Source: Dictyostelium discoideum (Eukaryota). Taken from it: 64,000 nt of DNA. The stretch is from contig CM000154.2 of the NCBI GenBank assembly GCA_000004695.1, positions 4,064,001-4,128,000 of the forward strand. Direction: 5' to 3'. The notes beneath the pieces are model-generated. The model worked only from the letters and a program-made list of their open reading frames with translations. It did no database searches and was not told the DNA's origin. This document shows, in pieces, positions 22,338-41,030 of the stretch. Made by a program: the position numbers and the translations under genes. Numbering within the stretch: position 1 is the stretch's first letter; each line of letters begins with the position of its first letter.

Positions 22338-25300
22338 ATGTTTGGTTATAACAGTAATGAGGAAGATTGTGGTGATGTTGCAATTATTGGTATAGGATTG
22401 AGATTTTCAAGTGGTGATTTAAATGAATCAATTTCAAAACCAAATCAATTATTTAATTCATTATTAGATGGATTTAATGGAATTGTTAATACTTCCGAAA
22501 GATGGTCTGATAATTATTATTTAAATGGTGAAATTAATTCAGTTTCTGCAGGTTTATTACCTCTTGATGAATGGAAAAGATTTGATCCAATTTTCTTTGG
22601 AATTAATCCAAGTTATGATAATGTTGTTACAATTGATCCTCAACAAAGATTATTATTAAAATGTAAGATATTATTTCAAGTTTTTCCAAATTAAAAAAAA
22701 AAAATCTTTTTTTTTTATACTTAATAATGAAGGAATCATATAATAACAACCTTTTCCCGCCACTTTTTTTTTTTTTTTTTTTTTTTTTTTTTTTTTTTTC
22801 CACTTGCAAATTTTTTTTTTTTTTTTTTTTAATCACTTTTATTATTTTTTTATAATTTTTACCACACAGGCGTATGGGAAGCATTAGAAGATAGTGGTAT
22901 TGATCCAATTAGTTTACGTGGTACAAATACAAGTACATTTATTGGTTGTAGTACTACTGATTATTGCAGTCTTCAAAAATCGCCGTTTGAAACTCAAAAT
23001 AATATTTTTGGTTCTTCAAATCATTCAGTTGCAAACAGAATCGGTTATTGCTTTGATTTTAGGTATGATTTGAATTTATTAAAAAAAAAAATAGAATTAA
23101 TTATAATTTTAATTGTTATCATTATCATTACTAATAATACCTTTTATATTTAAATATAAAGAGGTGAGAATTTTACAATTGATTCAGCTTGCTCCAGTTC
23201 TCTAAATGCAATTAATTGTGGATACAATTCGATCAAATCAAATAAATCAAATGTATCAGTTGTTGGTGGTGTTAATTTTATATTAGGTATGTAATGTGAT
23301 TATATTAGCATAATAATTATAATAATAATAATAATAATAATAATAATAATAATAATAATAATAATAATAATAATAATAATAATAATAATAATAATAATAA
23401 TAATAATAATAATAATAATAATAATAATAAAAAAGTAAATTAATTAATAATCAATATATAATATTTTTATATTTTTAGACCCAAATATTTCAAAATCATT
23501 CACACAATTAAATATTTTAAGTCCAACTGGTAAATGTCATTCTTTTTCATCGGATGCTGATGGTTACGTTCGTTCAGAAGGTGTTGGAATAGTCATATTA
23601 AAGAAACTAAAAGATGCAATTAAAGATTCAAATAATATCTATTGTGTAATCAAAGGTTCAAGTTCAAATATCGATGGAAACTATGATAAATTAAACTTTT
23701 ATTCACCATCAAAATCATCTCAATATGAAAATATGAAATTAGCAATCAAATCAACCAATGGTCAAATCAATGAATCTGATATTGATTATTGTGAAGCTCA
23801 TGGTACTGGTACTCCAACTGGTGATCCAATTGAATTAGAAGGTATTTCAAGACTTTTCAGTCATAATAATAATAATAACAATAACAATAAACAAGTTTTA
23901 GTTGGCTCAATTAAATCAAACATTGGACATACTGAAGGTAAATTAATTAATTAAATTTTCTTAATCATAATCAATAATCAATAATTAATTACTAACATTA
24001 CTCATTTATTTTTAATTATAATATCATAATTAATCAGCATGTTCTGGAGTTGCATCATTAATTAAATGTTGTTTAATGTTTAAGAATAAATTATTTCTTC
24101 AAAATATTAACTTCAAAGAACCAAATCCATTAATAAATTTCAAAGAATGGGCATTAAAAGTCGTAACTGAACCAATTAAGTTCAATGAAAATAAAACCAC
24201 CGTTATGTTAATTAATAATTTTGGTGTTACTGGTAAATATTAATATATCATTTTATAATTTATGTGTATATGACAAAAAAAATTAATAATTTTATTATTA
24301 TTTTCTCCAGGTTCAAATGTTTGTTTAATATTATCAGAATTTAAAGAAAAACGTTATAATAATAATGAATACAGTAGTGATAATGCTTGTGAACAAATAG
24401 ACATTGATAGTAAAGTAATTGAAAAAAAGAAATTTTTAATACCACTCTCAAGTAATTCATCAACATCATTAGATAATTATAAATCAATAATAGTCAATAA
24501 TAATTATGATGATTCGAATTCATCAACAAGAAGTTTTCAAGAATTTGTTTATAATCAAATCAAATTCAAATCAACATCATTAATTCAAAAATCAGTTATA
24601 ATCGCAAGTGATTGGAATGAATTTCAAGATGATGATAATCAAATAAAGTTGAAAAATAGTGAGGGTTTAATTTCAAATATTACTGTTGAAAAAAAGAAAT
24701 CACCACTCACAGTAATGGTATTTTGTGGTCAAAGTTCACAATATAATAAAATGGCATTATCGCTATACGAGAATGAACCAATATTCAAAGAATCAGTGAA
24801 TAGATTCGATAAAGAGTTATTCAAGTATTATGGTTATTCAGTTTTAGATAGATTAAGATCAGTCAGTGATAAAGATGAAATATCAATCCATCTACCAATT
24901 TTAGCACAACCAGCAAATATAATGATTCAAATATCACTCTATGAACTATATAAACATTGGGGTGTTTCAGCAGATATCATCGTTGGTCATTCTCTTGGTG
25001 AAATGTCATCATCCTATTCATCAGGTATGATCGATTTTGAAACATTGTGCTACTTAATCTATCATAGATCACTAGCTCAAAATAGAACCACAGGTACAGG
25101 TAGAATGTTATCAGTCAATATTAGTTATGATGAATTTATTGAGAAATACCAATCCAAAAACAATAAATACGAAACACTTGAAATTGCATGTTACAATTCA
25201 CCAACATCAATCGTTATTGCAGGTAAAGAAGATCTATTAAATGAAATTTCAAAAGAATTTAAATCAAATGATATCTTTTGTGCAATGTTAGGATCGTTAT

Positions 25301-28300
25301 CATCATTTCATACATCAAGTCAATTTATGATAAAAGATGAAGTATGCTCATTGGTATTTAAATCAAAACTACCATCAGTACCAGTATTTTCAACAGTCAC
25401 AACTAATTTATTCAATGATCAAACACCATATAATGCAAATTATGTATGGGAGAATATTTATCAACCAGTATCATTCACACAGACCATCAGCAATCTTTAC
25501 AAACATATCGAGTCTAATGATATGGGTAATGAAATTACATTCATTGAAGTTGCACCTCATCCAACATTACAATTTTACTTGAATCAAATGAAATCAATTC
25601 AATCAAGTTACTTTAATCATGGTAAAAGCGTTACAATCTATTCACCATTACACAAAAAGAAGAATGATTATAATGAATTTTTAAAAACAATCTCTTTATT
25701 ATATGTAAATAATAATTTTAATATTAATTTTAAATCACAATTAACCAACATCAATAATAATAAAATCAAGAGCAACAGCAACAGTAATAGCAACAAAAAT
25801 AATAACAAAATAATCCAATTCAATGATAATAACTTGCCTCTTTATCAATGGGATGATAATGAATACTTTAAATTAAATCCATTTCATGAAAAGATTACAA
25901 GTGAAGGTCCACCCATTCAAAACCTTGGTAATAGTATTGATTCAGCATGTTCAACCTATCAAACATTTATTGATATTAAGAAACCACCATTTCAATGGTT
26001 AAAAGGTCATCAAGTCAGTGATAAATTTTACTATCCTGGAATGGGTTATGTTCAAAATCTATTATCAATTTATCCAAATCAAGATATAACAATTAGCTCA
26101 TTAGAATTTAAATCACCATTAGTATTAACAGAAGGTAATAATCAATGTTTAGAAACTACAGTTTCTCTCCTCTCAAAGAATGAATTCAACGTTAAAAGTC
26201 ATTACAAAGATCAAAAAACAAATCAATGGATATTATCATCACTTGGTAATTTTAGTTTATTCAAACATAACAGTATCAATAGTGAAAAATTAATTAACAT
26301 TCAAGCATTAAAAGATAAATGTAATTTTACAACAATATCAAAACAAGAATTTTATGAAACAATTAAAATCAAAACAAATTTAACATATAAAGGTTTATTC
26401 CAAGGTGTAAAAGAATGTTCAATTGGTAATAATTGTTCACTCGCTGTAGTATCATTAAATGAAATCAATAATCATACAATTAGTAATCATAGTACTATTG
26501 GCCGTTCATTGTTTAATGCTGCAACTTTAGATTCTTGTTTACATGGTTCATTAATTGTAGTTGCACAACCAATTGTACTCGATAGAATTGAAGGTTTCAA
26601 ATTATACTCTTCAAATATTCCATCATCGTCATCGTCGAGCAAAGATGACAATGACTGTGACAGTAATAATAATAATAATAGTAATAATTTTATTAAAGAA
26701 TTATATGTTTACACTGAAGCAAAAGCAAAAACCAATTATCAATCATTCTCAGCATCAGTTAAAATCATACTTCCAAATGGTAGATTATTAATGGAGATCT
26801 CAATGGTGGTTTGTACATCAGTTTCACTTGTAAATCCAAGAAGCAGTATAATTTGTAAACCACCTTCAAATGAAATTTATACACCATGGCTTCAACCAAA
26901 AGATTCAATCATCAACAAACCTCAACAATTCAAACATTTATATAGTGTAGATGAATTTATTGCCAAAGAAGAAGATAATCAAATCATTTCAACTGAACTG
27001 TTATTATCATTATTTTATAAACATATCAACGTTAGATGTCCAACTATAAATTTAGAATCATTAATAACATTAGAATATAATCAATTTAAACAACTATATT
27101 ATAACAACAATGGTTCAGTAAATGAAAATCTTTTCAAATTCGTTTTTGAAATCTTAAAGAGTTATAGTAGTAATAATATTCTTAATCACAATAACAGTGA
27201 AAACAACAACAATGAAAACAGTAATAATGAATCACTATATTATTTTGAACAATTATATATTAAAACAACTAAAATAATAGCAAAACAACTATTCCCATTA
27301 AAAGATGATGATTCATTTACAGATACACCACAATCATTATTCAAGAATGTATATTTAGATGAATTTTATAAAAATTTTAGAGCAGTTCAACCATTAAATA
27401 ACTTATTAAGTGAAATTATAATTGAAGCACTCAAACCAATTTTAAATCAACCAATTGTATTTCGTATATTAGAAGCAGGTGGTGGTACTGGTAGTCTTAG
27501 TTTATTAATTTTAGAAAAGATTTGTAAACTTTTAAATGCAAATCCAAACTCAGTCATTGATATCGAATTCACATGGAGTGATGTTTCATCGTCTTTTTTT
27601 ACAGAGATTAAAGAGAAGTTTTCACCATTTACAGCTCACAAAAATTTCAATATTATCCACCGTGTATTAGATTTAGAGAAACCATTATTTGATCAAGACT
27701 TAAAACCATCCTATTATGATCTCGTTGTTATATCAAATGTAATGCATGTCGTTAAGAAACTTAAACCAACATTGGATGAAATTCATAATATATTAACACC
27801 AAATGGTCAACTGCTATTTATTGAACCACCTTATAAATCAATTTATTATGATTCTATTATGGGTTGTTTTTCACAATGGTGGCCATCACCCGATAGTGAT
27901 ACCGAGTTAAGACCTGATAGAAGTTGTATGAATCAAGAAAAATGGATTAAACTTTTAAATGAAACAAACTATAGAGATACAATTATATCTGGTAATGACA
28001 ATTTAATATTTTTAATTCAAACAAGAAAACCATCAATTAATGAAATCATTTCAAAACAATCATCAGATTCATCATTGGATCAATTTAATTCTTTCAATAA
28101 AATCATTTTATTTGGTAATAATAATAATAATGGTTGTAGCCTTCAAAATTCAATATCATCAAATCAAGAATTAAAAAGTAAAATCATTAATATTAATAAT
28201 TTTAATGAATTTCAAACATGGATTACAAATAATTATGATAATAGTGATGGTTTTGGCAATAGTAAAACATTAATAATATTTTTAAAGTCAATTGAACCAA

Positions 28301-40349: not shown

Positions 40350-40574
40350 TTATTTATTTTTAAAAACTAAAGTAATATAATAAATAGAAAAAATAAAAAA
40401 ATTCCTAAAATTTATTGTTTAATAAATCTACCAAAATCCATGTATCAATATGTATGCATATTTTTTGTTGTGTTGAATAAAAAAAAAGAAAAAAAAAAAT
40501 AAAAATAAATATTAGAAACACTAAAATTGAAAAAATAAATTAAAAAGATCTTAAAAAAAAATTTTTATCCACCT

Positions 40575-41030
40575 TATTAATCAGCATGTTCTGGAGTTGC
40601 ATCATTAATTAAATGTTGTTTAATGTTTAAGAATAAACTATTTCTTCAAAATATTAATTTCAAAGAACCAAATCCATTAATAAATTTCAAAGAATGGGCA
40701 TTAAAAGTCGTAACTGAACCAATTACCTTCAATGAAAATAAAACCACTGTCATGTTAATTAATAATTTTGGTGTTACTGGTAATTTTAATATATCATTTT
40801 ATTTTCTTTACAATACCATTTATTATCTATATATAAACTAATATATTTAATATTATCAATTAAAGTTCAAATGTTTGTTTAGTATTATCAGAATTTAAAG
40901 ATAAATGTTTTAAAAACGATGAAAGCAGTGATAATGCTTGTGATCAAATGGATATTGATAGTAAAACAAATGAAAAAAAGAAATTTTTAATACCGCTCTC
41001 ATGTAATTCCCTGCAACAAACATCGTAGAA
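40575..41030 (+). pseudogene. Truncated third PKS copy: exon-5-like segment (KS C-terminus) plus about 170 nt of exon 6, then a stop and loss of homology
   Basis: The segment CATGTTCTGGAGTTGCATCATTAATTAAATGTTG...GGTGTTACTG|GTAAT, an intron, then ...TTCAAATGTTTGTTTAGTATTATCAGAATTTAAAGATAAATG is about 85-90% identical to PKS exon 5 and the start of exon 6. Homology begins within about 10 nt of the intron-4 acceptor (attaatcag). It translates to [53 protein letters not shown] and then diverges. Confidence 0.8.

Follow-up and report, generated by a model that had tools for sequence, protein, structure and literature searches.

A tandem array of highly reducing polyketide synthase genes in Dictyostelium discoideum, probably old and partly homogenised by gene conversion, with two constrained copies and a relic

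We analysed a 64,000-nucleotide stretch of Dictyostelium discoideum chromosome 5 (contig CM000154.2 of assembly GCA_000004695.1, positions 4,064,001 to 4,128,000; hereafter the window, in whose coordinates all positions are given unless a locus is named), which belongs to the AX4/AX2 lineage, has a G+C content of ~22% and carries two near-identical polyketide synthase (PKS) genes lying head to tail and followed by a fragment of a third. With a probability of roughly three in four, we read this locus as a tandem array of iterative, highly reducing type I PKS genes that is older and has been partly homogenised by conversion, and that consists of two constrained copies and one unprocessed relic. 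On this reading, the duplication would predate the split of the AX4/AX2 lineage from at least one wild isolate, most of the gene would since have been homogenised within each genome by gene conversion or unequal crossing-over, array members would have been gained, truncated and lost over time, and both intact copies would have been kept under purifying selection. A preliminary description of the window had already recognised a head-to-tail array of two intact copies and a decayed third piece, and the six-exon models, the open frames and the 565-bp spacer between the genes all bear this out. The coordinates of the main features are collected in Table 1.

Both gene models were assembled by hand from stop-free stretches and GT/AG sites. 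Every intron runs from GT to AG at a homologous position, with phases 1, 2, 1, 1 and 1 in each copy, exactly as first described; each gene has ten canonical splice sites, and neither translated model contains an internal stop. The two copies are 94.9% identical over 8525 aligned nucleotide positions (90.7% when gap columns are counted), close to the ~95% estimated earlier, and 94% identical as proteins, and some 430 SNPs tell them apart; a self-comparison aligns 22347-31044 with 31655-40334 in the same orientation, as a series of blocks that are 93-97% identical. All 11 exonic indels fall within low-complexity Asn/Ser-rich tracts or at the N terminus, in agreement with the earlier impression that the copies differ in length at poly-Asn linkers. 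Introns 1, 2 and 5 are 69-83% identical between the copies and intron 4 is 99% identical. Copy-to-copy homology stops at 31044, 24 nt before the copy-1 stop codon, and copy 1 therefore has a private C-terminal tail; the copy-2 tail (to 40350-40402) is shared with genes A and B of isolate ACTFIW (labelled D. discoideum) and with the single gene of isolate ACTFIY (labelled D. cf. discoideum), and the copy-1 tail differs from it.

Each copy encodes one KS-AT-DH-cMT-ER-KR-ACP module without a thioesterase or reductase release domain. Pfam models score above cut-off in both copies for KS (PF00109 at 208 bits and PF02801 at 108 bits in the N-terminal 433 aa of copy 1), AT (PF00698, 135 and 144 bits), cMT (PF08242, 47.6 and 49.1 bits against a cut-off of 30), ER (ADH_N and ADH_zinc_N_2), KR (PF08659, 82-84 bits) and ACP (PF23297, 104 bits). 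The domain order given in the preliminary description thus stands, with a putative DH that is seen solely below cut-off in both copies (PKS_DH_N at 22 bits against 27; PS-DH at 19-22 bits against 23.7) and whose ten-residue HxxxGxxxxP motif keeps its His and Pro and has Asp in place of Gly in both copies and in the named relative pks31. Shared by both copies are the KS motifs DSACSSS, EAHGTGT and NIGHTE, which supply the Cys-His-His catalytic residues, the AT motif GHSLGE with its GHSxG active-site serine, the S-adenosylmethionine (SAM) motif ILEAGGGTG of cMT, and GMDSL with the phosphopantetheine serine of ACP; motifs totalling 43 residues, together with GMDSL, can be read in the protein alignment. 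The copies part at two motifs. Copy 1 has GQSSQ in place of the conserved AT motif GQGSQ, and within the ten-residue NADPH motif of ER it carries Ser2091 where copy 2 has Gly, an ER difference that the preliminary description had pointed out and that our motif scan of both copies and 118 homologues reproduces. The Gly is kept in copy 2 and in nearly all homologues, and the only two others with Ser are both D. firmibasis PKSs (P0052 and P0058). By analogy with FAS-like iterative PKSs, each enzyme would assemble malonyl units into a chain that is reduced and possibly C-methylated.

Several measures of constraint agree for the two open frames. Between the copies, the synonymous divergence (dS) is 0.106 and the nonsynonymous divergence (dN) is 0.028, giving an omega (dN/dS) of 0.27 by the Nei-Gojobori method, and the per-domain comparison suggested at the outset yields values of 0.12-0.51 across every domain or linker segment. 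When changes between the copies were polarised against four related genes, copy 1 had acquired 41 nonsynonymous and 43 synonymous derived changes (omega ~0.23) and copy 2 had acquired 67 and 44 (omega ~0.37). Indels come in multiples of three in 11 of 11 exonic cases, compared with 6 of 13 intronic ones, and none of the ~330 coding differences is a nonsense change, although 6.4% of possible substitutions in the coding sequence would give a stop. Frameshifts hidden in the 6.7-kb exons, named beforehand as a threat to the view of two functional paralogues, were sought and none was found, and on this count the view survives. Low omega, in-frame indels, zero stops and canonical splice sites together argue for selection acting on both open frames, and both copies look functional from their sequences.

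The age of the array can be gauged against its neighbours. For flanking single-copy genes, dS is 0.05-0.12 between the window and ACTFIW and 0.06-0.18 between the window and ACTFIY (one kinase-versus-L004 dN/dS value was left out of this set because a gapped tblastn hit had corrupted it), and the dS between copy 1 and copy 2 (0.10-0.11) is not below that of these orthologues. Within the array there are two blocks in which the copies have different partners in ACTFIW. In the first, which spans intron 1 to exon 2, copy 1 goes with gene A and copy 2 with gene C at 12 of 13 consecutive informative sites; intron 1 of copy 2 is 87% identical to that of gene C, compared with 70% between copies 1 and 2, and in this quartet almost every site from 23541 on groups the copies within each genome. 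In the second, just upstream of cMT, gene B is the partner of copy 1 and gene A that of copy 2 (eight informative sites, with a further, discordant one at 27287 between them). Outside both blocks, most informative sites of the ACTFIW quartets group the copies by genome, and in 4 of 6 quartets the informative-site patterns are clustered along the sequence (p <= 0.001). Derived states shared by ACTFIY occur at 26 sites in copy 1 alone and at 25 in copy 2 alone; they too are clustered (p = 0.0002), and they exceed the chance parallel change that we put, by a rough hand estimate, at about a dozen per class. The trans-lineage blocks, the level of dS and the divergent introns are most simply read as the trace of a duplication that is older and was later overlaid by gene conversion or unequal exchange, and not of a fresh one. 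The copies lie adjacent in the same orientation and display a mosaic of within-genome and trans-lineage similarity, as concerted evolution predicts.

The preliminary description had instead proposed a recent unequal-crossover duplication with one copy decaying. On such a reading, the event would have taken place very recently in this lineage, the ~5% difference would be the divergence accumulated since, and the fragment would be a third copy from the same burst, now decaying. We consider this unlikely, given a copy-to-copy dS of 0.10 that is not lower than that of flanking orthologues between lineages, the low identity of introns 1, 2 and 5, the contiguous blocks that pair each copy with a different ACTFIW gene, the clustered ACTFIY-shared states in both copies, and a spacer unlike the copy-1 5' flank. 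What a recent event would account for is the bulk signal: copies 1 and 2 fall together at 86 informative sites when ACTFIW genes A and B complete the quartet (against 15 and 21 for the other groupings) and at 53 with ACTFIY as outgroup (against 25 and 10), a 7-nt insertion in intron 4 is common to the two copies and missing from every other copy, and ACTFIY, a related isolate, has a single gene. Some results also count against an older array with two working members. The quartet of copy 1, copy 2 and ACTFIW gene A with ACTFIY as the fourth member has no significant spatial clustering (p = 0.27); a ~17-kb middle part of the ACTFIW array (L001 to L004) is not covered, which leaves its full copy number and the orthology map incomplete; and an exact protein look-up of both models returned no match, so that the naming of the two genes is unconfirmed. 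Furthermore, at positions that are at least 90% conserved among 62 homologues, copy 1 has the private substitutions P24S, the GQGSQ-to-GQSSQ change in AT and M1573I, copy 2 has C173N, Y681H, M699A, G1642C and L1958P, and the ER Gly-to-Ser change of copy 1 comes on top of these; one copy may possibly have lost or changed activity, judging from these residues.

Taken to its end, that last point becomes the view that only one copy is functional and that the other, whether expressed or silent, is becoming a pseudogene despite its open frame. Either copy could be cast as the failing one: copy 1 for its Ser at the second Gly of the ER motif, its Ser in the AT motif and its P24S in KS, copy 2 for its 67 nonsynonymous to 44 synonymous derived changes and five private changes at conserved sites. 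Branch omegas of ~0.23 and ~0.37 are, however, far below 1, ~8 kb of each copy has no stop or frameshift despite the 6.4% of substitutions that would be nonsense, the splice sites are all intact and the ER Ser recurs in the two D. firmibasis PKSs, which together make this view quite improbable; the private substitutions are leads for functional divergence and no evidence of decay. We dismiss almost entirely the view that assembly created the duplicate by rendering an allele or a read pile-up as a tandem repeat; it draws only on the general risk that near-identical repeats pose in assemblies. In an independent assembly, GCA_054883475.1 (locus tags ACTFIT_), contig CM142511.1 agrees with the window over 5705-27003 and 31828-52962; going by the genome table in PMC12745789, this is most likely AX2-214, sequenced with Nanopore plus Illumina. 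Of the array, the two matching stretches cover the 5' 4.7 kb of copy 1 and all of copy 2 from 31828 on, to past the relic, and the ~4.8 kb between them in the contig is also their distance in the window; the comparison does not extend to the spacer or to the final 4 kb of copy 1. Differences are homopolymer lengths and a few single-nucleotide polymorphisms; none falls in a PKS exon, and the sole one inside either PKS gene is a homopolymer-length difference in intron 1 (copy 1); the AX2-214 annotation also has a 2684-aa product from the same ATG as our copy-1 model. An artefact would further have to contend with copies that differ at ~5% of sites and in their introns, and with syntenic arrays in other isolates.

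Table 1. Features of the PKS array and its surroundings in the window
Feature	Position	Strand	Details
DDB_G0290459, J-domain, 404-aa ORF	15741-16955		exact protein look-up (D. discoideum AX4)
PKS copy 1	22338-31068	+	six exons, span 8731 bp, 2684 aa
PKS copy 1, exons	22338-22662, 22870-23062, 23162-23286, 23479-23937, 24038-24232, 24311-31068	+	manual GT/AG model, open frame
Trans-lineage block	22691-23050	+	intron 1 to exon 2
(AAT/ATA)n microsatellite, intron 3 of copy 1	23310-23463	+	Tandem Repeats Finder (TRF): period 3, ~154 nt, 51 units, 89% matches
Trans-lineage block	27116-27378	+	upstream of cMT
Copy-1 ER Ser2091 codon (GGIG to SGIG)	~28598-28600	+	computed by hand from the residue number, approximate
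Private 3' end of copy 1	31045-31068	+	codons ...SPSEENF plus stop; blastn homology ends at 31044/40334
Spacer between copies	31069-31633		exactly 565 bp
PKS copy 2	31634-40349	+	six exons, span 8716 bp, 2690 aa
PKS copy 2, exons	31634-31970, 32228-32420, 32528-32652, 32751-33200, 33301-33495, 33577-40349	+	boundaries map one-to-one from copy 1
(AAT)35, exon 6 of copy 2	35019-35122	+	TRF; 104 nt pure, encodes the long poly-Asn AT-DH linker
PKS relic	40576-41071	+	last 9 nt of intron 4, exon 5 (~40585-40779), intron 5, ~200 nt of exon 6
DDB_G0290471, TKL kinase	41828-42886	-	exact protein look-up (AX4)
DDB_G0290427, alpha/beta hydrolase	49138-50100	-	exact protein look-up (AX4)
DDB_G0290429 cluster member, ORF	51285-51860		protein look-up (AX4)

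The third piece of the array is a relic. Its start close to the intron-4 acceptor was correctly placed in the preliminary description (40575, here 40576), and its end was put too early: at ~41068-41071, and not 41030, it lies ~200 nt and not ~170 nt into exon 6, and self-comparison pairs 40576-41071 with 24029-24514. Nothing of exons 1-4 and nothing past those ~200 nt is present. The decay proposed for this piece is evident in a 5-nt insertion and in the loss of the G that follows the intron-5 acceptor AG; the relic is an unprocessed pseudogene fragment that cannot encode a PKS frame. Intron 5 is kept, and the relic therefore arose by DNA-level duplication and not by retroposition. Its overall identity to both copies is 85-86% and is unevenly spread. 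In exon 5 it reaches 99.0% against copy 2, with 2 differences in 195 nt, and 96.9% against copy 1, and an ACC (Thr) codon there is shared with copy 2 and absent from every other copy; in intron 5 it drops to ~62%, and the exon-6 part is ~84% identical to either copy. An exon 5 at 99% beside a part with 16% divergence makes it likely that exon 5 was recently converted with copy 2 while the remainder decayed. Between the PKS and the kinase gene, no relic was found in ACTFIR, ACTFIZ or ACTFIY; the corresponding interval of D. citrinum is only ~350 nt long and has no match to the relic, and the sequence shared with ACTFIR and ACTFIZ restarts exactly at 41074-41077.

The interval from the relic to the kinase was also considered as a further decayed part of a third PKS copy, and this was rejected, as blastx of 41075-41830 against more than 120 PKS proteins gave no match better than E = 2.4. 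On the plus strand, 41007-41636 contains open reading frames (ORFs) of 119 aa and 90 aa in one frame with a single stop between them. The 90-aa ORF (41367-41636) is 90% identical in ACTFIW with a dN/dS of ~0.17 and 94% identical in ACTFIR, where it has an in-frame stop; it is missing from ACTFIY and D. citrinum and has no similarity to PKSs. In other annotations, this region is assigned to genes of 253 aa and 468 aa or joined to copy 2, and it may be a small lineage-restricted gene.

Array copy number, for which a survey of other strains had been suggested, varies between the isolates examined, consistent with birth-and-death evolution. The ACTFIW array counts at least three PKS genes: a full-length gene A, a truncated gene B from which exons 1-3 and the segment corresponding to 24047-24716 are missing, and a gene C with a complete 5' end that runs off the locus. 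ACTFIY has a single gene with a ~920-bp internal deletion, called as two ORFs, with the kinase directly next to it. At least one PKS lies beside the kinase in ACTFIR (2695 aa), in ACTFIZ (2844 aa) and in D. citrinum (2655 aa). ACTFIW gene B (L001 18995-20681, matching window 23396-24047 and 24716-25766) starts inside the intron-3 (AAT)n microsatellite, its deletion begins 10 nt into exon 5, and the relic of the window begins 9 nt before exon 5; two independent rearrangement ends within ~20 nt of the intron-4/exon-5 boundary and a third in the microsatellite suggest breakage-prone sites.

Automated annotation deals poorly with this arrangement. In the AX2 annotation, copy 2, the relic and the downstream ORF are fused into one product of 2902 aa that ends at window 41639 (L002 11248-21059), a model that we regard as a probable prediction artefact, and the 2792-aa ACTFIW model P0001 (L001 10001-19546) is gene A run into the exon-4 piece of gene B. 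Because automated models of long-read genomes fuse array members and relics in this way, PKS counts across isolates need correcting.

Noncoding parts of the array have features of their own. Intron 4 (23938-24037 in copy 1, 33201-33300 in copy 2) is 94-99% identical across array members of three isolates, as conserved as its flanking exons, with introns 1, 2 and 5 at 65-87% among the same members; it holds a TACTAAC branch-point-like motif that pks31 also keeps, and its conservation may result from constraint on splicing signals or from repeated conversion. Of the spacer (31045-31654), local alignment and blastn against the copy-1 5' flank found only ~130-170 nt of weak T-rich similarity upstream of both ATGs. 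As the two are largely unalike, a simple a..b|a..b duplication junction is no longer visible and was rejected as a description of the spacer. Within it lies a 229-bp palindromic element (31197-31425) whose 60-nt arms (31197-31256 and 31366-31425) are 88% complementary, with a perfect core of ~37 nt and a loop of 109 nt. No further copies of this element were found in the rest of the window or in the ACTFIW and ACTFIY loci, and it could be a MITE-like (miniature inverted-repeat transposable element) insertion or a hairpin left by a rearrangement junction. The (AAT)n repeat reported from intron 3 of copy 1 is indeed missing from intron 3 of copy 2; its length is ~154 nt and not ~105 nt, the 104-nt (AAT)35 tract being that of exon 6 in copy 2, at whose AT-DH linker copy 1 is 14 aa shorter in the protein alignment. 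The intron-3 repeat is also present in ACTFIW genes B and C, which removes its proposed use as a marker of copy age.

The array is bounded by the J-domain gene DDB_G0290459 and the TKL kinase gene DDB_G0290471. A biosynthetic gene cluster around the pair was considered and rejected: Pfam scans of ten neighbouring ORFs detected no P450, methyltransferase, thioesterase or reductase, and their sole relevant finding was an MFS transporter 17 kb upstream, to which the protein look-up adds the alpha/beta hydrolase DDB_G0290427. This hydrolase gene lies 8.8 kb downstream of the array, in the same position in every isolate examined; as these PKSs lack a release domain, it is conceivable, as pure speculation, that the hydrolase releases their product in trans. 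Farther from the array, window 7405-7488 has six single-base differences to AX2-214 within 84 nt in a comparison that elsewhere differs almost only in homopolymer length, and this cluster could be genuine strain variation or could stem from how this short segment was sequenced or assembled.

By interpolation of identifiers, the two copies should be DDB_G0290467 and DDB_G0290469, an assignment that is unconfirmed, as are the pks numbers, presumably 27/28 or 28/29. Our homology search returned no relative above 90% identity, neither the AX4/AX2 proteins of the same genes nor the syntenic proteins of ACTFIR, ACTFIZ and D. citrinum, and yet it gave more distant ones, so that the gap is a property of the search and not of the biology; a full-text literature search found no Dictyostelium paper that defines these genes or names their product. 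The nearest named relative is pks31 (DDB_G0290703, UniProt Q54FQ1), ~400 kb away on the same chromosome in a PKS/P450 cluster. It resembles the pair in its KS-AT-DH-cMT-ER-KR-ACP order, in the positions of introns 3 and 4 (the two compared) and in lying in a tandem cluster, but differs in sequence (76% protein identity, dS ~0.37). Its neighbours are longer, at 3075 and 3101 aa, and the 3075-aa representative has a C-terminal NAD-binding reductase that the pair lacks; unlike the pks31 cluster, the pair has no P450 or obvious tailoring gene alongside among the neighbouring ORFs scanned.

Single-module, iterative KS-AT-DH-cMT-ER-KR-ACP enzymes are familiar from fungal highly reducing PKSs (HR-PKSs) such as LovB and LovF, and the ACP of the pair matches the Pfam model 'HR-PKS sdgA C-terminal ACP' at 104 bits. 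LovB is also the textbook case of an ER domain inactivated through changes in its nucleotide-binding motif, which by analogy may serve as a lead for the Gly-to-Ser change of copy 1. The likeness to LovB and LovF has its limits, as dictyostelid PKSs form their own clade and a trans-acting ER or release partner is not evident near the pair.

Tandem expansion of PKS genes in Dictyostelium is already known, and the locus, part of an annotated reference genome, is an ordinary member of its family. Dictyostelid PKS families comprise ~40-50 genes with few orthologues between species, which has been credited to species-specific expansion (PMC3188802, Sucgang et al. 2011; on these expansions see also Zucko et al. 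2007, as cited there); D. discoideum has ~40 PKS genes, few with known products (PMC12625978), and PKSs are among the largest orthogroups in new long-read genomes (PMC12745789). The expansions described in PMC3188802 concern species ~400 My apart, whereas duplication and conversion here act within the D. discoideum complex, which makes the array a small-scale case of dictyostelid PKS expansion with copy number varying among isolates of that complex. There is precedent for a near-identical D. discoideum pair in pks16 and pks17, which are ~96% identical and belong to a different clade; Pks16 reportedly makes fatty acids and has no active methyltransferase (PMC12828403).

The array might also act as a generator of diversity, with short tracts passing between the relic and both intact copies and with the ER and AT changes of copy 1 leading to a less reduced or different polyketide, to ongoing neofunctionalisation within a conversion-prone array and to strain-specific chemistry, although we think this improbable. 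Existing knowledge of how such families evolve is unchanged by this locus. Its additions are modest: evidence of concerted evolution and copy-number variation at the level of one locus, a mosaic relic, and a caution against gene models that run array members together. Single PKS knockouts are uninformative in part because near-identical paralogues are redundant, and, because gene conversion erases divergence, percent identity understates the age of duplication.

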